DNA of 64,000 bases. It comes from Betaproteobacteria bacterium. Its GTDB lineage: Bacteria > Pseudomonadota > Gammaproteobacteria > Burkholderiales > Rhodocyclaceae. Shown here in pieces: positions 5,187 to 29,876 of this stretch (positions are counted from its first letter, which is position 1; the number at the start of each line of letters is the position of its first letter). The translations under genes were made by a program, and so were the position numbers. The notes under the pieces are model-generated. The model had not been told where the DNA came from. It saw nothing but the letters and a program-made list of their open reading frames with translations, and searched no databases. Location: assembly GCA_031403915.1 (NCBI GenBank), contig JANNGP010000175.1, positions 7,759-71,758 of the forward strand, written 5' to 3'.

Positions 5187-5510
5187 TTATACCAAAGAGG
5201 CCAGACCGTGACGTGCCCGTGCCCGCGCACAGGCATCACAACCCGCCTCAAGCTCACGACAAGGCGACGGGCGGGCGTCATAAATCGAACAGGCAACACG
5301 CTGACCGATATCTCCGGACAACGCCTCACAGCGCGGCGGCGAGGCATCCGTGCCAGTCATGCGGACAAGCTGCGCAGTCACCGGCACTGTGTGCGCCAAC
5401 GGCACGCCGCCTGCCCACGCAAACTGTCCGCCGGCAAGTTCCAGCGGATGAAAGTCGACACGAAAGGCCGCACAGCACGCACCACAGGAAAGGCAGACAT
5501 GATCAGGCAT
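5187..5510 (-). CDS. YkgJ-family cysteine-cluster protein
   Basis: CLSCGACCAAFRVDF, RCEAL.G.IG, CSIYDARPSPCREL and CARAR; start moved to ATG 5510. Confidence 0.85.
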   Translation of the reverse strand: MPDHVCLSCGACCAAFRVDFHPLELAGGQFAWAGGVPLAHTVPVTAQLVRMTGTDASPPRCEALSGDIGQRVACSIYDARPSPCRELEAGCDACARARARHGLASLV

Positions 5511-5603
5511 AATGGCCGAACACAGGCATCGTAAGCGGCGGATTGTCTCGTAGTTCAAGGCCGCCAGCAATGCGCACGCTCAATTTCGGAGTTATAACCG
5601 TCC

Positions 5604-6410
5604 ATGCAACAATCCCCAATGCTCTCCCTGCTCGCCGCCCTGCTGCTCATGCCTGCCGCCGCCGCTGCCAACGAGCCGAGCGAAACCATCCGCAGCGCGC
5701 GCTATGCCGAACCGGTCGAGCGCTACGGGCATTTCGCGCTGGGCAAGCCGCACGAATACGCACGCCTGAACGTCACCGGCAGCAGCGGGAAGTCGTACGA
5801 ATTCGCCCTCCCCGACGATGAGGTGTTTGAGGATCTGTCACCGCGTTTGGTCAAAATGACGGCGGACGGGGACACCGAACTGTTGGTGATCATCAGCAAT
5901 AAGCGCAGCGGTGCGCGCATGGCGCTGATCCGGCTTCAAGCCGGCAGGCTGGAGATCGCCGCCCAATCCGCAGCCATCGGCCAGCCCAATCGCTGGCTGA
6001 ATCCGGTGGGCGTCAGTGATCTGGATGCGGACGGGCAGGCTGAAATCGCCGCTGTGATTACGCCGCACCTTGGCGGCACGCTGAAGATCTACCGCCGCAA
6101 AGCTGCCGAACTCGTTGAGGTCGCCACGCTCGGCGGTTTCTCCAACCACATTTACGGCTCACCCGAACTGGGCATGTCGCTGCCTTTCAACTATCAGGGG
6201 AAGGCCGTTCTGATCGTGCCGGACGCCATTCGCCAGAATCTGCGGATCGTAGCGCTGGATAATCAAACGCTGCGTGAAATAGCGCACTGCACATTCAACG
6301 TGCCGATCAACGGCGCAGTCACCCGTCGTACCAATGACTCACTTTCTGTCAGCACTTTTTCCAGCCGCAAGATCGTGAATCTTTCCGCGTGCCAGAAAAT
6401 CAGTCCCTAG
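5604..6410 (+). CDS. Secreted FG-GAP/VCBS-repeat-like protein
   Basis: Signal-peptide-like N-terminus; DLDADGQAEIAAVITPHLGG and ADGDTELLVI repeats. Confidence 0.65.
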   Translation: MQQSPMLSLLAALLLMPAAAAANEPSETIRSARYAEPVERYGHFALGKPHEYARLNVTGSSGKSYEFALPDDEVFEDLSPRLVKMTADGDTELLVIISNKRSGARMALIRLQAGRLEIAAQSAAIGQPNRWLNPVGVSDLDADGQAEIAAVITPHLGGTLKIYRRKAAELVEVATLGGFSNHIYGSPELGMSLPFNYQGKAVLIVPDAIRQNLRIVALDNQTLREIAHCTFNVPINGAVTRRTNDSLSVSTFSSRKIVNLSACQKISP

Positions 6411-7071
6411 CCAAAGTCAGAGCCGCACGAAACAAGGCGTGTCCCGAATCCAAGTATTTACGCTCAAACGGTGTGAGCGGATTCGCCGTACCATACTCCT
6501 CGCACACCGGCGTTTTCTGTGTGATGAAATTCACCGCAAAACAAAACTCCTCGACGTAGATGCGCCAGTTGCTGCGGCACTCCAGAACCCCGCCCAGTTC
6601 AAGCATCGACATGAACACGGGATGGCCGTGCCAGCGCCGCGAGAGGTGGCCGATCTTGGGCCACGGATTGGGATAGAGCAGATAGTGCCGATCCAGACGG
6701 AGGCCGGCGTCGTTCATCAATCGCCAGTAGTCGACGAGATCGGCGCGCACCAACTCAATATTGGGTGGCAGGGGGTCACGCTTTTCGCGCATCAGGCGCG
6801 ACTCGGATTGATCCACGCCAATGACGTAATGATCGGGAAAGGCCTGCGCCAGCGCGATGCTGCTCTCACCCGTGCCGCAGCACGAATCCAGTATCAGCGG
6901 CGCATGCGGTGCCACCCGCTCGCGCCGCGCCATGCTCGACTCAAAAGCGGCCCGGTTGTAATCGGCATAGGGCTTACAGAATGGTGCATCACGATGACGC
7001 GCAAGGAGCAATCCAAGCCGTTCGTGGATACCGGTCTGGGCGCTGACTGGCACACTGGAATTGGCGCGCAT
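6400..7071 (-). CDS. TrmB-like class I SAM-dependent methyltransferase
   Basis: LDSCCGTG SAM motif, VIGVDQS, and HYLLYPNPWPK resembling the TrmB FPDPWPK motif. Confidence 0.7.
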   Translation of the reverse strand: MRANSSVPVSAQTGIHERLGLLLARHRDAPFCKPYADYNRAAFESSMARRERVAPHAPLILDSCCGTGESSIALAQAFPDHYVIGVDQSESRLMREKRDPLPPNIELVRADLVDYWRLMNDAGLRLDRHYLLYPNPWPKIGHLSRRWHGHPVFMSMLELGGVLECRSNWRIYVEEFCFAVNFITQKTPVCEEYGTANPLTPFERKYLDSGHALFRAALTLARD

Positions 7072-7137: not shown

Positions 7138-8709
7138 TCAGTTATCGATCAGCGACGACGTCTGCACGCCGATGCGCACGTTGCCCCAGTGCTTGCCAGC
7201 CACCATCAGCGGGAAGGCCATGTCGGACACGATTTCTCCGGTATCGCGCAGGTAGGTCTGTAGCAGGAGCGGGTCAGTATTGGCGGCGGCGCGTGTTTCG
7301 GTACCGTTCGCAAAGAAGCGCCTAGAGCGGTTGCCAACCAGATCGCGCTCGTAGTCGCCGGTCAGCGGCTCGCAGCGATTGTGCGACGGGCAATAGCCGT
7401 CGTTCGCCACGGGTATGCAGAAAAAAGTGGCCGGGATTTCCTTGAAATAGCGCTGCATGATCGGTTGCACACGCTGGTGCACGGCATCGTCGTAGCGGGT
7501 CGTGAATTTTTGCGGCTTGGTATTCGATATTTCGCGGTAGTTCTTGTCGAAGACATCAACACCACTGTCAGCGACGGCCTGAAGTTCACGTTGCATTTCG
7601 TCGCGAAAGCGCTCGCACAGGAGCAATGTTTTTTCGAGCGAACCACGACCAATCTTGCAGTTCGACACTTCCCGCATGACGAATTCAGCCTCATGCGAAA
7701 GATCAGTGGTGGCCTTCTCGGCGGCCTGCATGCGCTGGGCGACAGCCTGGCTGTGCGCTCGGATCTCGGTGACACGCGCATGTACGTTGACGTTGTTGCT
7801 GACGATTTCCTGCAGCGCCGTCGAGATAGTAGCCAGCGCCGTGGCCGATTCCTCGAAATCGCCGACAAGGCGGCCGAAGTGCCCCGCCGCTTTTTCGACA
7901 ACTCCCTGTGAATGCACGGTGTCCTCGCTGATCACCGCGGTTTCGGTCTGGATATGCTCGACCTGAGCACGCATGCCGCTGATGTCGTCGCTGATCTGGC
8001 CGGTGGACTGCTTCACCTTCTCGGCCAGCTTCCTGACTTCATCAGCAACCACGGCAAAGCCACGGCCGGCCTCGCCCGCGCGGGCCGCCTCGATGGCGGC
8101 GTTGAGAGCCAGCAAATTGGTCTGGTCGGAAATTTCCTTGATGACGCCGACGATGGCCTGGATACTCTCGGAACGATTGTTGAGATGGTGGACGTTGTCG
8201 CGGAAGTCTTGAACCTTCTGCTTTACGCTGGCGATGCGCCGCGAGGCATCCTGCATCTCGCCGTAGGCTTCGTGGGCGTGCGCCAGATTATCCTCGGTCA
8301 GCCCGGCGATTCGCGTCGCGCTGTCAGACGCGGCGGCAAGTGATTCGCTGGCTCGTGTCGACGCCTCGTAGACGCCCTTAGCCAGCTCTTCCTGCTCCTG
8401 CGCGCGCGTATTGACTTCTGCAATCTCCTTGCGCACGCCGCCCGAGCTGAAGGCGATCGACAGCGTGTGCGAGCGCACGTCGCCCAGCATCTTCTGAAGT
8501 TTTTCGAGGAAGCTGTTGAAGCCACGAGCAATCGGCGCCGACGCCCCCGTCGCGTCGAGATTCTGCGAAAAATCTGCAGCCTGCCCGCCAAGGCGGTCAA
8601 AATACTCGGCGACGACATCCCGAACAGCAGCACGCCCACGCAGCAACGCCATGCCTGCTGCGCCGGCAACGAGACCGGCAAGCAAGCAACCGATTGAAGT
8701 GGCATCCAT
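7138..8709 (-). CDS. Methyl-accepting chemotaxis protein with an extra C-terminal domain
   Basis: [35 protein letters not shown] signature; one N-terminal hydrophobic segment; about 150 extra residues after the signalling domain; start moved to ATG 8709 with a GGGAGA RBS. Confidence 0.88.
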
Positions 8710-19954: not shown

Positions 19955-21007
19955 TCAAATCATGGGAGCCACGGCATCCTGAAAGCGCGTGTTAACATCC
20001 AGCACCTTGTCCCAACAAGACAGAAAAGCCTCAACGCACGCCGGATCGAAATGCTGACCGGAATTTTCTGAAAGATAGGCTCTCGCAGTCTCAACCGGCC
20101 AGGCTCTTTTATAGGGGCGCTCGGAAGTTAATGCATCAAAAACATCAGCCACTGCCACAATCCGCCCGAAGATGGGGATAGCCTCACCGCTCACACCGTA
20201 CGGGTAGCCCGATCCGTCATATTTTTCGTGATGCGCAATGGCGATAGAGGCTGCCGCCTGGAGAATCGACGACTCGCTCCCTTTGAGCAACTCGAAACCA
20301 AGGGCGGAATGTGTTTTCATCACCGAAAACTCTTCCGGTGTCAGCGTTGTCGGCTTAAGCAGAATGTAATCAGGAATACCGATCTTACCCACGTCATGCA
20401 TTGGTGCGGCTTGCAGTATCAAGGCCTGATCTTCGGCAGAAAACCCGAGGCGGCCGGCAATCAGGCACGAATAATGCGCCATACGCTGAATATGCGCGCC
20501 GGTTTCCGGGTCACGAAACTCGGCCGCGCGCGACATGCGAAACAACAACTCATGTTCCCGTGAATGAACTGCGGCGGTCGCTTTTCTGACCTCATCGGCC
20601 AACCAGGCGGCCTTGTCAGCCAACATGCGGCGACTGGCACCCAGTGCGAGCATATTGCGCACCCGTGCCGAAAACTCAATGCGATCCACCGGCTTGGTCA
20701 GAAAGTCAGTCGCCCCGTTCTGCAAGGCTTCATAACGCACATCCTTGTCGTCATTGGCCGTAATCATCAGGATCGGAACCTCTTCCCGTCCGGGCACCGC
20801 ACGCAGACGTGTGACAAACCGTATGCCATCCATCTCCGGCATCATGTAATCGACGATGATGAGATCAGGCTGGTTTTCCGAGCACCAGGCCAGCCCTTTT
20901 GGCGAGGCTTGAAAACACAAGTGCTCACAATCACCCAATTTTCTGACCAGCGCACTGAGCAGCGTCAGATTGATTTCACTGTCATCGATGATGGCGATTC
21001 GGTTCAT
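19955..21007 (-). CDS. Response regulator with HD-GYP phosphodiesterase domain (RpfG-like)
   Basis: REC domain (IAIIDDS...IVDYMMP), [18 protein letters not shown] and [14 protein letters not shown]; start moved to ATG 21007. Confidence 0.92.
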
Positions 21008-21184
21008 GCCGCTCTCCATACGCTCCATGCAAACTGGATTGAGTATAACAAAACTGGGGGTGTTCTCATTTATCCGCTGGATTGCGCATGAATGAGAACA
21101 CACCCCAAGCTCGTCGCACATGCAAAAACCCGTCATAATGAGCCCTCAAAAAACTCTTCAGAAGAGATTAATTGGAGATTGTTC

Positions 21185-21292: not shown

Positions 21293-22084
21293 ATGGACTT
21301 GAAGGCTATGCAGACCATACGCCTGAGCTTGTTTACTATTCTGCACAAGCCAGTGCCTACCCATCGGGTCACACGCTATTTCAATTATTTTCTGGCGGCG
21401 ATCATTGTGGCCAACTGTGCGGCGGTTGCGCTAGAGACGGTGCCATCGATATTTGAACCCAATCGGTTGTTGTTCCGGGCGCTGGAAGCTTTCTCGACGG
21501 GGTTTTTCATCATCGAATACGCCCTGCGTCTGTGGGTCTGCGTCGAGCAAGACCGTTACAGCAAGCCGGTCAGCGGCCGACTGAAATATGCAGCGCATCC
21601 GCTCCCGCTGTTTGACCTGATCGTCATCGCAACCTTGTGGGCACCGTGGGATCTACGTTTCCTGCGCATATTCCGTCTCTCGCGTTTGCTCCGTGTGCTG
21701 CATCTGGAAGGACTGGATCACTCGTTCAAGGCCATCGTCGGCGCGGTCGGACGGCGCAAACATCTGCTCGTCATTTCGACACTGATGATGTTGATTACCA
21801 CCTACTGCTTTGCTGCCGTGCTCTATCTGGTCGAGCACGCAGCTCAGCCCGATAAATTCGGCAGCATCCCGGAAACCCTGTGGTGGGCCATCATCACCCT
21901 GACGACCATCGGTTACGGTGACATTACCCCGGTAACGGCACTTGGCAAGATACTTTCCGGAGTAATTCTGCTGGTCGGCATCGGCATCTTTGCACTGCCG
22001 ACGGCGATTGTTACTGCTGCGATCCTGGATGCGGGTGCGGATCGACCAGAGCGTTGCCCGCATTGTGGACGATCTCCCGATTGA
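21293..22084 (+). CDS. Ion transporter (voltage-gated K+ channel-like)
   Basis: Six hydrophobic segments, S4-like LRFLRIFRLSRLLR, selectivity filter TTIGYGD and C-terminal CPHCG. Confidence 0.9.
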   Translation: MDLKAMQTIRLSLFTILHKPVPTHRVTRYFNYFLAAIIVANCAAVALETVPSIFEPNRLLFRALEAFSTGFFIIEYALRLWVCVEQDRYSKPVSGRLKYAAHPLPLFDLIVIATLWAPWDLRFLRIFRLSRLLRVLHLEGLDHSFKAIVGAVGRRKHLLVISTLMMLITTYCFAAVLYLVEHAAQPDKFGSIPETLWWAIITLTTIGYGDITPVTALGKILSGVILLVGIGIFALPTAIVTAAILDAGADRPERCPHCGRSPD

Positions 22085-22118: not shown

Positions 22119-22583
22119 ATGGAACTGAATTTACCTCAACTCACCGTATTCAAATACAAGCATGGCGACAGTGTTCCGCTGTCGCCAAAGCGCAAGCTGC
22201 TCTTCATCGTCAGCCTGATGCTGGCGCCCTTCATCGTGTACTTTGCCTTTCCGCCGGGGCTGATTGCGGCGGCGATTCCCTTCGTGGTGTTTTTCGGGCG
22301 CAGCGGCACGCTGGAACTCGGCCCACGCTACCTGATCTGCGGCGACACCATCCTCTATTACGCCAATGTGACGCAGCTGACCTTGCAGGAGGCCGAAGGG
22401 CGGCTCTCGCTGCAAACGGCGAGCGGCAAGCCCTTCGTGATCGAGCGAGGGAAATTCCCGACCAATGCGCGCAAGAAGCCCAAGATCGCGGCCAATCAGG
22501 CGGCCAAATTCGCCAAGGTTTCGGCACGGATCGTCGAGAAGGTGCGGCGCACATCGCCGGCAAACTCAGCTGCGGGTGCCTGA
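22119..22583 (+). CDS. Hypothetical membrane protein
   Basis: 154 aa from ATG 22119 with AGAGA upstream; two hydrophobic segments then a soluble basic domain; ends 4 nt before the radical SAM start. Confidence 0.65.
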   Translation: MELNLPQLTVFKYKHGDSVPLSPKRKLLFIVSLMLAPFIVYFAFPPGLIAAAIPFVVFFGRSGTLELGPRYLICGDTILYYANVTQLTLQEAEGRLSLQTASGKPFVIERGKFPTNARKKPKIAANQAAKFAKVSARIVEKVRRTSPANSAAGA

Positions 22584-22587
22584 TCTG

Positions 22588-24447
22588 ATGAATGCCGCCG
22601 CGCCGGCTTTCCGGCGCAACATCCACCTGCTCTATGTGCCGACGCTCGGTTGTAACCTCGATTGCGCCTATTGCTACCTCGGCGAGCAGACCACCGAGGC
22701 GGCGATCAAGGTCGACGCCGGTCGTGCCGTGGCCACGCTGCGCCACACGCTCGATGCCCTGCGCGCTGCCGGTGTGCTGGCCTTCAACGTGTCGCTGCAC
22801 GGCGGCGAGGTGACGACGCTGCCGGCAGCGGTGCTCGACGAATTGTTCGCGATGATCCGCGGTCATTACCTCGAACACTTCGATGCGATCAACGCGCTCG
22901 GTCACAAGAAATCGGCGCCGCACATCAAGACCAACCTCTACAAGTTCTCGCCTTTCTACGAATTGTTTGACCGGCACAAGGTCTCGATTAGCGCCAGCAT
23001 CGACCTGCCGCTTGCGCTGCACGCTCGCTACCGCACAACGCGCGGCGGCAAGGACTGGCTGGACAAAACACACGAGAACATCCGCCTGCTGGCGCGCTAC
23101 CCGCACGCCAAAAAGATTTCGGCCACGCTGTGCGGTGAGCATCTTGCCGACATCCCGGCCATCGTGCGCGATATCCGCTTCATTCACGATGAACTGGGTT
23201 TCGACATGAACCAGTTCAACATCATGTTTGCTTTTGCCTCCGAGCTGAACCGCCAGCGCCAGGGCGAGGCGGCGTTCACGCCGGCGACACCGCAACAACA
23301 GCAGGTACTCTACGACGCGCTACAGGCCGAATTTGCCGGCACCGATCTGGAAGATGGCCTGCGCCGCAACTGGTTCGACGAGTTCAAGCCGAGCTACTGC
23401 ACCAATGCCTTCAATTGTGGCGAGCGCTTTTATCTCCTGCAAAGCGATGGCTCGGTGTATTCCTGCGTGCGCGGGCAGGGCATCGAGGAATTCCGCTACG
23501 GCAATGTTTTTGAAGAACCCATCGACGACATCCTTGCCAACGGTGCGCGCAAGATCGCAGCGATCCATCAGGCGCACGGCTTTGATTCCAACTGTCAGCA
23601 GTGCAACCATCTTGCACTGTGTCATACCGGCTGCCCGGTGGTTAAATTCCAGAGCGGCAGCGGCCGTTCATACACCTGTGATTTGCAGAAGGTAATCTAT
23701 GCCGATAACCCGATGTCCTACCCGGCGGCCTCCCCAGACGCGCAGCGCGAGGACGCCCGCCAGTACCGGCTCGGCATGCACCCGGTGCTGGCCTTTGCTG
23801 CACAGGAGGAGAAGCCGGTGAAACCCATGAACGCGGTAGTGCTGCCCAACGACCTCGCTGAAGACAAGAACGCCCTGCGTGCGATCATCAATGCCGATCC
23901 GGTTTTGCAGTCACTCTATCGCGACGATGCCTTCGTGCTGGAACTACGCGGCGAGCTGATTCCGCTCGCCTCGCAGATTCTCAAGGCACAGACAACCTGG
24001 CATACGCTGGTCTCCGGTGACCGCATCGTGGTGCATGTGGCGCGTGAACTGTTCGACGCAAATTGCGAGGAACCGATCCGCAATACCCTTTACTTGCAGA
24101 TGTTGCGTGACACGCCGGTCGTCTATGGCGACGAGCAGCGCAGCAAGCAGGAGCATGTGTTCACCTACCAGTTGTTCGCCCACTGCCTGCAGCCGAGCGA
24201 CCGGCTGGGTGAAGGGTATCTGATGGCTGATCTCTCCGGCCTGATTGAACTGCACCGCGCGCACTACCGGCGGGGCGTGCTGAACAATCTGTTCTTCACC
24301 ACCCTGATGTTGCGCGAGTACCATTACCAGAAGCAGAAGGGCAACGCCTTCTACCATATTCAGGCGATCAACCTGCCGTTCCAGAATTTCGAATTTAATT
24401 ATTTCAACTATCTCAACCCCCATGCCGGGCAAGGAGAACTCCCATGA
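22588..24447 (+). CDS. Radical SAM/SPASM-domain protein with long C-terminal extension; putative peptide maturase
   Basis: CNLDCAYC (CX3CX2C), SLHGGE, and SPASM cysteines CTNAFNC...GSVYSC...CQQCNHLALCHTGC...YTC; start moved to ATG 22588. Confidence 0.9.
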   Translation: MNAAAPAFRRNIHLLYVPTLGCNLDCAYCYLGEQTTEAAIKVDAGRAVATLRHTLDALRAAGVLAFNVSLHGGEVTTLPAAVLDELFAMIRGHYLEHFDAINALGHKKSAPHIKTNLYKFSPFYELFDRHKVSISASIDLPLALHARYRTTRGGKDWLDKTHENIRLLARYPHAKKISATLCGEHLADIPAIVRDIRFIHDELGFDMNQFNIMFAFASELNRQRQGEAAFTPATPQQQQVLYDALQAEFAGTDLEDGLRRNWFDEFKPSYCTNAFNCGERFYLLQSDGSVYSCVRGQGIEEFRYGNVFEEPIDDILANGARKIAAIHQAHGFDSNCQQCNHLALCHTGCPVVKFQSGSGRSYTCDLQKVIYADNPMSYPAASPDAQREDARQYRLGMHPVLAFAAQEEKPVKPMNAVVLPNDLAEDKNALRAIINADPVLQSLYRDDAFVLELRGELIPLASQILKAQTTWHTLVSGDRIVVHVARELFDANCEEPIRNTLYLQMLRDTPVVYGDEQRSKQEHVFTYQLFAHCLQPSDRLGEGYLMADLSGLIELHRAHYRRGVLNNLFFTTLMLREYHYQKQKGNAFYHIQAINLPFQNFEFNYFNYLNPHAGQGELP

Positions 24448-24908
24448 ACGCTCCCGAACTGGCGCGCAGCGCCTATACCGTTGAATGCTTTCTCAATGCC
24501 TTGCGGCTGGATGACGGGCCGGCCCGCACGGCCATTGAGGAATGGCTGGTGCGCTGGCTTTCCGGGGCGACGCACAAAGCCGGCGATTGCGCGATCTATC
24601 GAAAATCGTCGATCGAGTGTTACAGCGGCGGCCGGATCATCAAAACCTTTGATCTGCCGCAGGCGAGGCAGGCGCGCACGATCTGGTGCGACGGCAGCAA
24701 GCTTTCGGTAATCGACGGCGAAGAGTTTTTGACGACCGGAAAACTGGTCATGCTCGGCGCGGCGGGCTTGGTGCTGACCATACCCGGCGTGACTGCGGCG
24801 GCAGCCGCTGAGGCGGCGAAGAAAAATACCGACAGTGGCTTGAGCGGCGGCGACACCAACTCGAATAACAACAATAATAACAACAATAACAATAACAACA
24901 ACGGGTAG
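24444..24908 (+). CDS. Hypothetical protein with Gly-Gly motif and poly-Asn tail; putative RiPP precursor
   Basis: AAGGAGA RBS and ATGA overlap with the rSAM stop; ends ...KNTDSGLSGG-DTNS-N13-G. Confidence 0.75.
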   Translation: MNAPELARSAYTVECFLNALRLDDGPARTAIEEWLVRWLSGATHKAGDCAIYRKSSIECYSGGRIIKTFDLPQARQARTIWCDGSKLSVIDGEEFLTTGKLVMLGAAGLVLTIPGVTAAAAAEAAKKNTDSGLSGGDTNSNNNNNNNNNNNNNG

Positions 24909-25008
24909 CAGGAACTGGCCGGGCTAGAGCTAGTCAAACATGGACAACGGGCTTGAAAATCAGCCATAATCCGCCGACCGTTTTGTTGCTCCTACTGCAG
25001 GCCATCCC

Positions 25009-25951: not shown

Positions 25952-26737
25952 ATGCAGAAACTCTCGAAACTTGCAGCCGCACTGATCGTCGGTGCCATGA
26001 TGTCGGCTTCGGCGATGGCTGCCCCCGATACGTTTGTAACGGTCAATGGCGTTGCCGTTCCGCAAAGCCTCGCCAATGTCTTCATGGCCGAACAAAAAGC
26101 CCAGGGCGCACCTGACACACCAGAACTAAAAAAAGCCGTGCGTGAAGAACTGATCCGGCGCGAACTGTTGATTCAGCAAGCCAAAAAGGCCGGCATTGAT
26201 AAGAAACCAGAGATCGCCGCACAGGCTGATGCGGCACGCCAAGCCTTCCTGGTACGCGCTTATGTCCAGGACTACGTTGCCAAGAACCCGATCAGTGATG
26301 CTGTGTTAAAAGCAGAATACGACAAAATCAAGGCACAACTCGGCAACACCGAATACAAGGCACGTCATATTCTGGTTGTTGGCGAAGAGGATGCCAAAGC
26401 CATCATCGCCAACCTCAAGAAGGGTGCCAAGTTTGAAGAACTCGCCAAGCAATCGATTGACCCGGGCTCCAAGGACAATGGCGGCGATCTTGGCTGGGCC
26501 AGTGCCGGTAATTTTGTAAAACCCTTTAGCGACGCACTCGTTAGTCTGAGCAAGGGAAAGTTCACCGAGACTCCGGTAAAAACCGAGTTTGGCTTCCACG
26601 TTATTCTGCTTGAAGACAGCCGCCCGCTGGCCATCCCGCCGTTTGACGAAATCAAGCCGCGCCTGCTCCAGCAAGCACAAGGGCAACAAATCAACAAGAT
26701 GGTTGAAGGTCTGCGCGCCAAGGCTAAGGTCGAATAA
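25952..26737 (+). CDS. PpiC-type (parvulin) peptidyl-prolyl isomerase, exported
   Basis: Signal peptide; YKARHILV, SIDPGSKDNGGDLGW and TEFGFHVI. Confidence 0.92.
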   Translation: MQKLSKLAAALIVGAMMSASAMAAPDTFVTVNGVAVPQSLANVFMAEQKAQGAPDTPELKKAVREELIRRELLIQQAKKAGIDKKPEIAAQADAARQAFLVRAYVQDYVAKNPISDAVLKAEYDKIKAQLGNTEYKARHILVVGEEDAKAIIANLKKGAKFEELAKQSIDPGSKDNGGDLGWASAGNFVKPFSDALVSLSKGKFTETPVKTEFGFHVILLEDSRPLAIPPFDEIKPRLLQQAQGQQINKMVEGLRAKAKVE

Positions 26738-26760
26738 GACGCAAGCGCTACACAAACAAT

Positions 26761-26801
26761 ACGCCGGGACGGCCTCAAGCCTCCCGGCGTTGTGCTTTTT
26801 T
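26761..26801 (+). terminator. Intrinsic terminator after the PPIase gene
   Basis: Stem ACGCCGGGA/TCCCGGCGT followed by TGTGCTTTTTT. Confidence 0.7.
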
Positions 26802-26867
26802 GTACTTGGCTTCGGGCTAACAAGGGGTGAGAATAGGCCGGTGCCTTTCCTGTTCTTCAGAACCGAC

Positions 26868-29800
26868 ATGTGCTCACTCACGATCCGACTTGCTCTCTGT
26901 TTGTTACTGACCTTCGGTCTAAATGCGCAAGCCGCTGAAGATGAGGAAGGTTCTCTTCCGACCGATTTCAGCACAACGGCAGAACTCGAAAAACAGATCG
27001 CCGCCCCGCCGCCCGGTGCGGATAACCCGCAAGCACTGTGCATCTTCCTGCACAAACGCGGTGCAGCCTACTCCCGTCTCGGCCTGTACGACAAAGCCAT
27101 TGCCGACTTGAAACAGGGGCTCGACTTGAAGCAGCCGGCCACGCCGGACAGGTGGTGTGACCGCTTCCTTATGCAAGCACAGATCAGGGGCGCCCTCTTT
27201 TCATCCGGGGACTGGCTGGCGCTGACCGACTTCGCCCAGGCCGTGAGTGACGAGAAAATACACAGCAACAAATGGAACTACTTTTTTGTCCAGTTCTGGC
27301 TGATCGATGCCCATATCCATCTGGGTAAGCTACGCGAGGCGGAACAGGCTTTACAGCGTGCTGGCGAGATTATTCCGGCATTGCGTCAGCAAAACAAAGG
27401 CTGGGTCGCATACGGTGCCAATGTCCTCGAACGGCATAGCGCGTATGCGGCACGCATGCAGATGCTGCGTGGCAATTATGTTGAGGCCGAACGCTTCCAG
27501 AGGCAGGCGTTGCGCTACGCGCGTGAACAGCTTGACTATTCGCTGACCAACCGCTCTACAGAAAGCCTTGATAATCGAAACGCAACCCACTACCTGACTA
27601 CGCGCAAACGCGAGTTGGCCGGCATCCTTTCAGCCCAGGGGAAAACCGGAGAAGCCGAAATTCTGGCCCGCCAGGTACTGCAGGAAACTCTCTCACGCTC
27701 AGCGAAAAACACTTGGATCGCTGCTAACGCACTTAGCCTGCTGGGCAAGATCAAGATACAGCAAGGACAGATTGTCGAAGCACTGCGGCTGCAGGAACAG
27801 GCGCTCAGCGCGCTGGAAAACTCAGGTGCCCGCCCCTACTCAACCGCAATTGCCGATTTGCGTCTACAAATCGGCTTCCTGCTTGGCGTGCAGAATCGCT
27901 GGACGGAAGCGCTGAAAATCTATGAACAGCGGGATCAGGGGCTGCGCGGCAACGCCGCGCAGTTTGCCAGAACAGGATCAAACAACCTCACCTGGGCGAT
28001 GGCGCTGCTCAAAAACCAGCGCATTGATGACGCTGAAAAAATGCTACGCAGCATCATCAACTACAACCTCAAAAAGCCCTTCGTCGACCCGCTGTATTTT
28101 GCCCATCTGCGTGGCTATCTGGCCGTGATTCTGGTAGCCGCGGGCAAGAACAACGAAGCACTGGCCGAATTCCGCGAAGCCTTTCCCATCCTTGTTCGGC
28201 AGGCGGAAACCGACAACAGTTCCGAGAATGGCGGTTTCGTGCGCCAGTACCGACTGCGCCTGATCGCCGAGGGTTACCTTGAGTTACTCTCCCAACTGGC
28301 TGTCAATCAATTGGCTCCATCCGGTTTCGACCCGGTTGCTGAGGCCTTTCGGGTGGCTGAAGCCTCACGCGGATCAAGCGTGCAACTGGCTATTGCCAGC
28401 AGCGCCGCACGTGCCAACTTGCCCGACGCCACGCTTGCCAATCTGGCACGTCACGAACAGGACAACGCCAACCAGATCAGCGCGCTCAACAAGCTGATGA
28501 ATCGCCTGGCCTCTGCGCCGGACAATCAGCGCCCGGATAAAATCATTGCTGATATCCGTAGTGATATAGAGCGACTGGAGAAACAGCACACCGCCCTGCG
28601 TCGCGAACTTGCCGAACGCTATCCGGCCTACGCCGAACTGGTTTCCCCAAAACCACCTGCTCCTGCCGACATCCAGAAGGTTCTGAACAAGGATGAAGCC
28701 GCTGTCGCCATTTATGTCGCCGAACAGAAAACCTATGTATGGACGATTACCCCGGCGCGTATCGCTTTCCGCGCGATCGACCTGCCCCGACAACAAGTCG
28801 ACAAGCAGGTCACCTCCGTGCGTCGTGCATTCGACCTGAGTGGCCCTGGTATCCTCCCCTTCGACACGACCAGTGCGCAAAGCCTGTATGCGACGCTTCT
28901 GGCTCCTGACGAAGCGCTGTGGGCTGAGGCCAAACTGCTCAACATCATCCCGCACGGAACACTCGGGCAACTACCTTTCGCCGTTCTACTCACATCAAAT
29001 CAGCCGGGTAAAAATATCGCCGAACAACCCTGGCTGCTGAAAAAAGTCGCTGTCGCTCAGCAACCCTCCGCTGGCACATTGATCGCCCTGCGCGCACAGG
29101 GACGCGCCGAGGTGAAACGCCGGCCGTTCGTTGGCTTTGGCGATCCGCTATTCATTGTCCAGGCACCGTCCAAAGTTGCAGGCACGCGCTCGGTGCGCAA
29201 CCTATCCATCCGGTTCGGGGGAGATAGCGCACCTTCCGAGACTGAAGCCGCGACGCTCCTGCGGGGTTTTACACAACTGCCGCCTCTGCCTGACACGTCG
29301 GTAGAGTTGAACGACATTGGAACAACCCTGGGAGCCGATTTAAAGACCGACATCTTCCTGGGCAAACAGGCCACGGAATACAACGTCAAGCGCAGTGATT
29401 TATCGGCTTATCAAGTCGTGGCCTTTGCCACGCACGGCCTCGTTCCCGGCGATCTGCGCGGCCTTGATCAACCCAGCCTGGCCATGGCCAACCCCTCGCT
29501 CACCGACGACAAGGAAAACGACGGATTCCTGACTCTGAGCGAAGTGCTTGGCCTCAAGCTCAACGCCGACTGGGTTGTGCTCTCGGCATGCAATACCGCC
29601 AGTGGCGACGGCAAGAACGAGGAAGCCGTGTCCGGCCTCGGGCGCGCCTTCTTCTTCGCCGGATCGCGCCGCCTGCTGGTCTCCTACTGGCCGGTGGAGA
29701 CCGTCTCGGCACGTCTGCTGACCACCGAACTTTTCAGACGCCAGACCCAGCAACCGGAGGAGTCCAAAGCCGAAGCCCTGCGCCACTCGATGCTGAAGCT

Positions 29801-29876
29801 GATGAGCAGTTCAAAGGACTACAGTCACCCGGCTTTCTGGGCGCCATTTGGCCTGATCGGCGACGCAGCGAGGTAG
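26868..29876 (+). CDS. TPR + CHAT (caspase-like) domain protein, likely exported
   Basis: Signal-peptide-like N-terminus from ATG 26868; TPR-like helices; CHAT motifs NIIPHGTLGQLPF, FATHG, VVLSACNT, SGLGRAFFFAG and HPAFWAPF. Confidence 0.88.
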   Translation: MCSLTIRLALCLLLTFGLNAQAAEDEEGSLPTDFSTTAELEKQIAAPPPGADNPQALCIFLHKRGAAYSRLGLYDKAIADLKQGLDLKQPATPDRWCDRFLMQAQIRGALFSSGDWLALTDFAQAVSDEKIHSNKWNYFFVQFWLIDAHIHLGKLREAEQALQRAGEIIPALRQQNKGWVAYGANVLERHSAYAARMQMLRGNYVEAERFQRQALRYAREQLDYSLTNRSTESLDNRNATHYLTTRKRELAGILSAQGKTGEAEILARQVLQETLSRSAKNTWIAANALSLLGKIKIQQGQIVEALRLQEQALSALENSGARPYSTAIADLRLQIGFLLGVQNRWTEALKIYEQRDQGLRGNAAQFARTGSNNLTWAMALLKNQRIDDAEKMLRSIINYNLKKPFVDPLYFAHLRGYLAVILVAAGKNNEALAEFREAFPILVRQAETDNSSENGGFVRQYRLRLIAEGYLELLSQLAVNQLAPSGFDPVAEAFRVAEASRGSSVQLAIASSAARANLPDATLANLARHEQDNANQISALNKLMNRLASAPDNQRPDKIIADIRSDIERLEKQHTALRRELAERYPAYAELVSPKPPAPADIQKVLNKDEAAVAIYVAEQKTYVWTITPARIAFRAIDLPRQQVDKQVTSVRRAFDLSGPGILPFDTTSAQSLYATLLAPDEALWAEAKLLNIIPHGTLGQLPFAVLLTSNQPGKNIAEQPWLLKKVAVAQQPSAGTLIALRAQGRAEVKRRPFVGFGDPLFIVQAPSKVAGTRSVRNLSIRFGGDSAPSETEAATLLRGFTQLPPLPDTSVELNDIGTTLGADLKTDIFLGKQATEYNVKRSDLSAYQVVAFATHGLVPGDLRGLDQPSLAMANPSLTDDKENDGFLTLSEVLGLKLNADWVVLSACNTASGDGKNEEAVSGLGRAFFFAGSRRLLVSYWPVETVSARLLTTELFRRQTQQPEESKAEALRHSMLKLMSSSKDYSHPAFWAPFGLIGDAAR

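Follow-up and report, generated by a model that had tools for sequence, protein, structure and literature searches.

A conserved three-gene cassette pairing a radical SAM/SPASM enzyme with a carrier protein that ends in an asparagine run: a probable protein-modification system

A 64,000-nucleotide stretch of betaproteobacterial DNA (GenBank assembly GCA_031403915.1, contig JANNGP010000175.1, positions 7,759 to 71,758; below referred to as the window, with position 1 as its first letter) contains a self-contained operon of three genes, A, B and C, all lying on the forward strand (22119–24908), and it is this operon that is considered here. Gene A (22119–22583, +) encodes a membrane protein of about 154 residues, which in the window matches the hidden Markov model (HMM) of its family with an E-value of 6e-53. 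The product of gene B (22588–24447, +) is a 619-residue enzyme of the radical S-adenosylmethionine (SAM) superfamily with a SPASM region and a family-specific C-terminal domain, while gene C (24444–24908, +) encodes a 154-residue carrier protein composed of an N-terminal domain (N-domain, residues 1–105, 24444–24758, +), a linker and a tail. Genes B and C share an ATGA stop/start overlap (24444–24447, +) made up of the TGA of B and the ATG of C, and the Shine–Dalgarno sequence AAGGAGA of gene C (24431–24437, +) is located 7–13 nt upstream of its start. The C protein of the window terminates with LSGGDTNS, thirteen asparagines specified by mixed AAC and AAT codons, and a single glycine; the tail counted from S140-N141 to N153-G154 (24861–24905, +) is the proposed substrate element of B. 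An earlier note on this DNA had pointed to the 619-residue enzyme with its CX3CX2C motif and full set of SPASM cysteines, and to the overlapping, Asn-tailed open reading frame (ORF) of 154 residues with its ribosome-binding site, and had taken the pair for a candidate new system producing a ribosomally synthesised and post-translationally modified peptide (RiPP) from a precursor with a Gly-Gly leader cleavage site. The motifs and the overlap were found in the window as described there, and the SPASM models score above their cutoffs, but the best-supported view of the finding is that of a three-gene protein-modification cassette and not of a Gly-Gly-processed RiPP.

Conservation of the cassette was assessed by scanning GTDB with each species represented by a single genome, which gave 298 genomes with a relative of B. 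Neighbourhoods were taken from the best 80 of these 298; C was located in the six-frame ORFs of the 80 loci by an HMM of its N-domain, and A was found by clustering neighbouring ORFs. C lies directly 3' of B and on the same strand in 77 of the 80 loci, and the family HMM of A places this gene directly 5' of B, again on the same strand, in 78. Three loci without C include two contig ends, one of which (L029) shows the start of an Asn run at its last bases, and a single true absence (L062). Betaproteobacteria, Myxococcota, Geobacter/Desulfuromonadales, Sericytochromatia/Cyanobacteriota, Deinococcus, Fibrobacterota, Leptospirales, Methylococcales and other Gammaproteobacteria are all represented in this set, and the cassette is also present in Bacteroidota (Rapidithrix), Algibacillus and Trichlorobacter lovleyi. 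On metagenome contigs, 46 complete C genes lie downstream of B and the tail was registered in 45 of them, the sole exception being a 1-nt homopolymer frameshift that leaves the Asn run intact. Metagenomic matches to B amount to more than 2,000 protein clusters at E ≤ 1e-10, although some of these clusters may belong to different radical SAM families. Homologues usually deprived of the downstream ORF or of its Asn tail had been named in the earlier note as the outcome that speaks against the partnership; neighbourhood analysis gave clearly the opposite picture, and the adjacent Asn-tailed ORF stands as the partner of the enzyme. The unit of two genes proposed there is real as far as the B–C pair is concerned, but it misses the third conserved gene, A, directly upstream. 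Likewise absent from the earlier note are the folded domain of C, the family-specific C-terminal domain of the enzyme and the connection with phage tail fibres.

Several loci show rearranged cassettes. In L062 (3187–7821) two genes lie between A and B, and neither C nor an Asn run occurs in 13.8 kb; L068 (1383–4658) has a 327-residue gene between A and B, and L046 (4864–5993) carries two A paralogues in tandem. The C gene found directly after B in ‘Candidatus Propionivibrio dominans’ (L047, 3935–4081) is truncated after about 48 codons, and a second, complete C with the Asn tail is placed 3.7 kb downstream of the truncated copy (7621–8067), as if foreign genes had inserted into C and part of it had been duplicated.

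Homologues of C are about 140 residues long and their alignment is divided into four parts: the conserved N-terminal 105 or so residues, a hydrophobic stretch, a variable linker, and the Asn run with a single Gly. In the 75 genome loci used for statistics the run contains from 6 to 27 asparagines (median 14) followed by one Gly, and the residue before it is Ser in 65 loci and Cys in four. Since AAC and AAT codons are mixed within the run in 73 of the 75 loci, it appears to be selected at the level of protein. This bears on the trivial explanation, according to which poly-Asn is a slippage-prone repeat of AAY codons (AAC or AAT) or a low-complexity filler that stands beside a radical SAM gene by chance. 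Such a view could refer to the variable length of the run between genomes and to the homopolymer-associated frameshifts in L014 and L131, but besides the mixed codons it is opposed by the persistence of an in-frame, terminal run closed by one residue and the stop codon in more than 120 loci of many phyla with GC content from 0.29 to 0.65, by the loss of the tail exactly where B is absent and by its recurrence on unrelated carriers, so that the non-functional reading is effectively refuted. The frameshifts just mentioned lie beside or before the Asn run (L014, 8205–8243; L131, 1071–1115, where an extra G is present in a G5 run) and mimic tail loss; probably they are sequencing or assembly errors and not biology. 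On the opposite strand of the window a 115-residue ORF (24620–24967, −) contains a poly-Leu run that merely results from reading the AAY codons of the tail in reverse, and antisense ORFs of this kind gave spurious “conserved” clusters 4 and 6 in the neighbourhood analysis.

The AlphaFold2 (AF2) model of C folds residues 1–105 with confidence into two helices packed on a beta-sheet, with values of the predicted local distance difference test (pLDDT) from 88 to 96 over residues 1–100. The linker (residues 106–139) and the tail are disordered in the same model, pLDDT falling below 50 for residues 113–139, and the tail is accessible in the sense that it is disordered and placed behind a linker of variable length. 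Residues conserved in at least 85% of sequences across all loci are E14, F16, N18, D24, R28, E32, K86, S88, D91 and G105, together with the Asn run. Foldseek comparison of the N-domain with PDB gave no neighbour (best E 1.3), the PDB profile search was also empty, and no relatives of C were found in Pfam, NCBIfam or PDB, divergent members included. The segment KLVMLGxAGLxLTLPG of C was considered as a membrane anchor or sorting signal and rejected, because it is not general, being missing or Ala-rich in several phyla.

For gene A the listed ORF begins at 21990, yet the homologues align from Met44, that is from position 22119. Hydropathy and conservation delineate in its product the motif FKYxH at the N-terminus, a pair of hydrophobic helices (residues ~25–62), a conserved soluble domain (GPRYLxCG...Y) after them and the basic C-terminal motif FPTNARKxxKIxxNKxAKFxKV. 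Pfam, NCBIfam and PDB hold no relatives of A, even when divergent members are used as queries; a resemblance to bacterial PH-domain proteins with two transmembrane segments is no more than an impression.

A natural knockout of the enzyme was found in one betaproteobacterial lineage, where A and C are retained without B (L085 4466–5396; L086 44–974; L087 691–1657). On the contigs of two C homologues that lack the Asn run (L085/L086 and L087), A and C are adjacent, 70 nt apart, and there is no trace of B within 5 kb. The C protein of this lineage has no Asn tail and ends with NEITLP or GRSSNA, and the A protein has lost its FPTNARK...KF motif. Because both elements disappear where B is absent, the tail of C and the basic motif of A appear to depend on B; enzyme and tail are thus coupled in evolution. 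The remaining parts of the two proteins continue to be under purifying selection: between two diverged contigs of the lineage, at dS of 0.6–0.8, omega is 0.14 for A and 0.11 for the N-domain of C. Judging by these values, A and the N-domain must have a role of their own that does not require B, which is unlike the behaviour of a mere leader peptide. A metagenome scan seeded with the tail-less C revealed no second case.

This result is also the place to weigh the classical RiPP scheme, in which C would be a leader–core precursor cut at Gly-Gly, with an 18-residue Asn-rich core modified by B and then released or exported. Such a scheme predicts a small ORF coupled in translation to a radical SAM/SPASM gene, as is found here, LSGG does precede the tail in the C protein of the window, and leaders can be long, as those of the NHLP and Nif11 types show. 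The Gly-Gly, however, is missing from most orthologues, as for instance in those ending with KDKQRSS-Nn-G, and the supposed leader is a confidently folded 105-residue domain preserved by selection where neither the enzyme nor the tail exists. The earlier note had seen no peptidase or exporter in the window, and indeed no peptidase, ABC transporter or exporter, or PqqD-like recognition-element protein is conserved around the cassette in the 80 loci, the other neighbours being generic sensor kinases, HD-GYP regulators and LysR regulators that occur in a minority of loci only. Similar tails are moreover found on structural tail fibres of phages, as described below. Altogether the classical scheme seems very unlikely, and neither the Gly-Gly cleavage site nor the division into leader and core is retained from the earlier interpretation.

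The catalytic part of B is easily recognized. The radical SAM cluster motif C22-x3-C26-x2-C29 (GCNLDCAYC, 22651–22674, +) is invariant in the alignments and the core superposes on radical SAM structures with Foldseek probability 1.00, while the Pfam model PF04055 gives 22 bits, which is under its cutoff of 29.5 bits. The SPASM region (23398–23679, +), delineated by Pfam, NCBIfam and alignment to 4K37, scores 24 bits with PF13186 (cutoff 21.5) and 46 bits with TIGR04085 (cutoff 27), and its eight cysteines (C271, C277, C293, C336, C339, C345, C349 and C364) are invariant in 52 homologues. Their spacing, as aligned to 4K37, matches that of anaerobic sulfatase-maturating enzymes (anSME), which implies that B also has two auxiliary clusters, presumably both fully ligated by Cys. 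Apart from the 3+8 cluster ligands there is no invariant Cys in the enzyme, C493 being conserved to about 90%. In the sequence alignment the invariant C293-VRGQG motif occupies the place where anSME has Cys276-Asp277, so that Val294 stands at the position of Asp277. The AF2 model of B has a mean pLDDT of 90. Both a PDB profile search, in which the core (residues 25–374) matches anSMEcpe with E 1e-8, and Foldseek comparison of the model, with anSMEcpe as the best match (E 1e-13) followed by CteB, ChlB, SuiB and SkfB, point to the same relatives. An N-terminal recognition domain, i.e. a PqqD-like RiPP recognition element, is absent from B, where the radical SAM motif already appears at residue 22.

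What distinguishes B is its C-terminal domain (residues ~380–619, 23725–24444, +), delineated by phmmer and the AF2 model. It is predicted as a separate alpha/beta fold with helices and about nine beta-strands, pLDDT being mostly above 85, and carries the motifs VVYGDEQRxKQEH and LREYHYQKQxxNAFYHxQxxNLPFQNxEF. When this domain alone was compared by phmmer with 1.84 billion representatives, just 84 matches were obtained, and all full-length ones are proteins of about 590–616 residues with the domain at equal position and the same architecture; the domain is therefore exclusive to the family of B. No sequence relative of it was found in PDB, and Foldseek with the full-length model returned radical SAM cores only, with no fold match for the C-terminal domain. 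Close homologues of B are counted in hundreds, have the same length and are conserved from end to end, including the last 240 residues.

None of the maturase families scored includes this enzyme. Among NCBIfam models only the generic SPASM domain scores above cutoff on B of the window, and every named maturase family is far below, the best scores belonging to anSME, TIGR04083 and DynA (75–77 bits against cutoffs of 300–450). Named peptide maturase models applied to B of the window and two divergent orthologues reached 75–86 bits at best, the cutoffs being 265–650; DynA, DarE/DarW, PapB, AmcB, YhhB, GrrM/OscB, XyeB, FxsB, HxsB, CbpB, QhpD, MftC and CefB were scored, as well as TIGR04083, TIGR04463, TIGR04064, TIGR04280, TIGR04334, TIGR04080 and TIGR04340. 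The model libraries used (Pfam 2025, NCBIfam June 2026 and PADLOC) cover only the generic SPASM domain of B and contain nothing for A or C; from the PADLOC defence-system models a marginal viperin match alone was obtained, due to the shared radical SAM core. Public annotations are limited to “radical SAM protein”, “SPASM domain-containing protein” or “hypothetical protein”, and in open-access full text no paper was found that links radical SAM/SPASM enzymes to poly-Asn substrates or mentions the tail sequence. The earlier note did not recognise the pair as a described cluster, and both searches agree with this.

Distant homologues of B (27–40% identity), which keep the C-terminal domain, adjoin unrelated proteins that likewise end in an Asn run and one residue. 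Campylobacter phage CAM-P21 and a C. coli replicon encode a full-length homologue, 34% identical and with the C-terminal domain included (for CAM-P21, L138 3235–6743, corresponding to MW462221.2 26302–29810). In the tail module there the order of genes is tail fibre, 211-residue protein, B, 128-residue protein, 337-residue protein and tail sheath; in Mu-like phages and prophages (L138 and also L139–L148, L150 and L151) a fibre is followed by a protein of about 200 residues starting with MFYNL or MFYIL and then by B. No A-like or C-like domain was found in the B region of CAM-P21. Its tail fibre ends with APSGSTNNNNY, and this is the sole run of at least four Asn in six frames of the 11.7-kb region. 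Related prophage contigs with differing fibres have the ends ATNNNNY, SSNNNNY, STGNNF, SSGNNF and SMGNNS, and the runs in phage fibres are preceded by stretches rich in Ser, Thr and Gly. A 173-residue protein of the Mu-like element L151 ends with GSGPNNNF and a collagen-repeat fibre-like protein of L150 with YNNNNNGNNH; unrelated proteins of 128 residues (L149) and 120 residues (L154) terminate in SSS-N14-R and WT-N10-G, respectively, and the upstream gene of L152, cut by the contig start, in at least fourteen Asn and Gly. Among 13 distant loci, 12 encode a protein that ends in an Asn run and one further residue within two genes of the B-type enzyme, if the cut gene of L152 is counted, while only one of 190 other ORFs of at least 80 residues in these loci ends with NNx. 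Since the same type of tail occurs on unrelated carriers beside distant homologues of B, the tail and not the carrier seems to be the common denominator of the family: on any carrier, a neighbour of the enzyme has a C-terminal Asn run with exactly one residue after it (G, R, Y, F, S or H). For phages this suggests that the C-terminus of a fibre is modified by a radical SAM enzyme.

Based on these data we consider it likely that B is a protein-modifying radical SAM/SPASM enzyme and that the very end of C, with its Asn run plus one residue, serves as its substrate element. The role of B as a modifier of proteins is supported by kinship of its core with anSMEcpe, CteB, ChlB and SuiB, each of them a modifier of peptides or proteins. 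Anatomy, conservation and the coupling of enzyme and tail in evolution are shown by the data, whereas the placing of the modification in the tail and the type of chemistry are inferred. In the proposed mechanism B would hold its substrate by the family-specific C-terminal domain, with no need for an N-terminal RiPP recognition element, and the disordered tail of C would reach the active site. The 5'-deoxyadenosyl radical might then take a hydrogen atom from C-alpha or C-beta in the Asn run or immediately beside it, and the substrate radical could be oxidised via two fully ligated auxiliary [4Fe-4S] clusters, as it takes place in anSME-type enzymes. This would leave the tail crosslinked or dehydrogenated, the reaction perhaps being repeated several times from one Asn to another, and the product, neither cleaved nor exported, would stay on the folded carrier C working together with membrane protein A. 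An oxidative change of this kind, possibly repeated, is our best guess by analogy, favoured by the fully ligated auxiliary clusters, by the lack of an invariant spare Cys as a hydrogen donor and by the lack of a conserved protease or exporter, in all of which the system is anSME-like. More tentatively, with chances that we put somewhat below even, A-B-C cassettes and fibre tips of Mu-like phages may share an unprecedented, possibly iterative radical modification of C-terminal homopolymeric Asn; backbone or side-chain N–C or C–C crosslinks giving a ladder or stapled structure are candidate products.

Several points weigh against this interpretation. Co-evolution is the sole ground on which the tail is taken for the modified site, and the tail could serve as a docking tag, with the modified residue elsewhere; oxidative crosslinking is proposed by analogy with other SPASM enzymes, and to our knowledge substrates consisting only of Asn have no precedent among them. 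In L062 the enzyme gene has no C in the surrounding 6 kb, and the 76-residue protein of L153, which ends with HSGNNNSKCSG, is the one imperfect case among the distant loci, its N3 run lying five residues from the C-terminus. The lineage without B represents a single evolutionary event inspected within ±5 kb, so that B may be present elsewhere in those genomes. RNA evidence for expression consists of assembled contigs and may be affected by carry-over of DNA.

The docking variant can be formulated as a separate explanation, in which the end made of Asn run plus one residue is a mere recognition tag, and chemistry takes place on the preceding residues rich in Ser, Thr, Cys or Gly, on the terminal residue (which might for example become an amide, or undergo oxidative decarboxylation as with MftC) or on protein A. 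The prevalence of Ser or Cys directly before the run and the Ser/Thr/Gly-rich stretches of phage fibres fit this picture, as do the closure of the chain by exactly one non-Asn residue and the disappearance of the basic motif of A along with B. Nevertheless, several orthologues, with RRR-N15, KRQ-N14 or IEF-N at this place, have no Ser, Thr or Cys near the run, the variety of terminal residues speaks against chemistry specific to their side chains, and Val in the invariant CVRGQG gives no support to chemistry of the formylglycine type. We regard the mere tag as unlikely. Formylglycine formation on the preceding Ser or Cys in particular is unlikely because the proposed base Asp277 is replaced by Val and because of the orthologues without Ser or Cys near the run.

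Epimerisation is the other chemistry to be weighed against an oxidative change in the tail. The earlier note had named it, together with Thr/Ser ether crosslinks and functionalisation of Asn C-beta, among possible reactions. If B were an iterative epimerase like YydG/EpeE or PoyD, it would turn the L-Asn residues of the run into D-Asn one after another, yielding for example a protease-resistant or beta-helical tail of unchanged mass. Radical SAM epimerases are processive on peptides and polytheonamide precursors are Asn-rich, and a homopolymer whose length varies is what one would expect of an iterative reaction indifferent to the identity of residues. But the known enzymes of this type need a Cys as hydrogen-atom donor, while B has no invariant Cys beyond its eleven cluster ligands; C493 is the nearest approach to it, and some other donor is possible. 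Full ligation of both auxiliary clusters is seen more typically where the substrate is oxidised, and phage tails contain just 2–4 Asn. Epimerisation of the run is judged to be possible but unlikely.

Among known systems anSME (anSMEcpe, PDB 4K36–4K39) is the closest to B, being the best match to its core both in sequence and in structure. Both enzymes lack an N-terminal recognition domain and have eight equally spaced SPASM cysteines with both auxiliary clusters fully ligated, and in both, as far as the proposal for B is concerned, the modification is kept on a folded or foldable protein substrate. Yet anSME models score far below their cutoffs on B (TIGR03942 77, NF010321 53 and NF010308 42 bits against 349, 441 and 484), and B differs by the extra 240-residue C-terminal domain and by Val at the position of Asp277. 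Partner C has no C/S-x-P/A-x-R motif, its substrate element being the C-terminal Asn run, and neither a sulfatase nor this motif is conserved in the 80 neighbourhoods. QhpD, a radical SAM/SPASM enzyme acting on QhpC, the gamma-subunit of quinohemoprotein amine dehydrogenase, makes several modifications, namely thioethers from Cys to Asp or Glu, on a small protein that is kept as a subunit. Its model TIGR03906 gives only 41 bits on B (cutoff 453), and C has no Cys that is kept from phylum to phylum and none at all in its tail. C15, C59 and C82 of the N-domain were considered as QhpC-like thioether sites and rejected: they are kept within Betaproteobacteria only and do not occur in the Geobacter, cyanobacterial, Deinococcus and Methylococcales orthologues.

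The mycofactocin system, MftC/MftA, like other SPASM systems directed at a C-terminus, has in common with the cassette that radical SAM/SPASM chemistry is aimed at the last residues of the substrate; MftC depends on MftB for recognition and on a Val-Tyr end of its substrate, and a peptidase acts afterwards. Counterparts of MftB, Val-Tyr and the peptidase are absent from the cassette, and TIGR03962 gives 28 bits on B against the cutoff of 265. Iterative radical chemistry along a peptide is known for PoyD/PoyA and YydG/EpeE, and Poy precursors are Asn-rich with a large leader domain. No sequence-family match of B to these enzymes was seen, B has no invariant Cys as hydrogen donor, the cassette includes no N-methyltransferase or protease partner, and its homopolymeric Asn run is terminal. 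SPASM maturases forming cyclophanes and ethers (DynA, DarE, AmcB, YhhB, GrrM/OscB, XyeB; TqqB-type) are among the best partial NCBIfam matches to B with 57–86 bits, far under the cutoffs of 310–650 bits, and are similar to B as RiPP-type radical SAM/SPASM enzymes encoded beside the substrate gene. They require aromatic residues in the core, whereas the tail of the main family has none and the phage versions end with Tyr, Phe or His.

Pairs of a radical SAM/SPASM enzyme and a ribosomal substrate from a neighbouring gene are of an already known kind and have repeatedly yielded new chemistry, such as sactionines, cyclophanes, ethers, splicing, pyrroloquinoline quinone (PQQ) and mycofactocin. The signature of C-terminal homopolymeric Asn, the family-specific domain of the enzyme, the membrane partner and the setting of phage tail fibres are, in contrast, unprecedented. 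A substrate that offers only Asn side chains and the backbone makes it likely that the reaction is undescribed for the radical SAM superfamily, and if this is true, one can assume a new class of post-translational modification, recognised in a manner of its own by an Asn run and a single residue after it. That phage fibres carry the tail too suggests that the modification serves structure or adhesion, and it offers a second, independent experimental system. For a family as widespread as that of B, the terminal Asn run is a clear and easily testable substrate signature, and the B-type C-terminal domain together with an NNx-COOH neighbour gives a ready rule for genome mining.

As to expression, a Trichlorobacter-like cassette is represented by contigs from RNA-labelled wastewater runs, which extend over each of its three genes and span the A/B and B/C junctions; this is a weak indication that the cassette is transcribed. 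For the cassette of the window itself no RNA runs were found, only DNA runs from freshwater sediment. Scanning for promoters and terminators gave nothing over background, Rfam had no matches in the window, and GC content over the cassette shows no anomaly.

Surroundings of the cassette in the window include some further genes. Upstream, a response-regulator/HD-GYP-type gene (19955–21136, −) lies near the cassette, as it does in several other loci: in L085, from the lineage without B, such a gene (5503–6678, −) is placed directly 3' of C, and nine loci of cluster 5 have it as well. Its link to the cassette is uncertain, since the family is common. Immediately 5' of the cassette a gene of the potassium-channel type with the selectivity filter TTIGYGD/TVGYGD is located (21293–22084, +). 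K+ channel genes were also found about 1–3.5 kb from the cassette in four distant loci of Desulfuromonadales and Leptospirales (L062 1403–2512; L065 3690–4751; L068 5098–6162; L077 8735–10420), which may be a coincidence. Finally, an ORF of 1095 residues (26589–29876, +), not conserved with the cassette, begins 1.7 kb 3' of it and, as read from its sequence only, combines TPR-like repeats with a C-terminal CHAT-like region.

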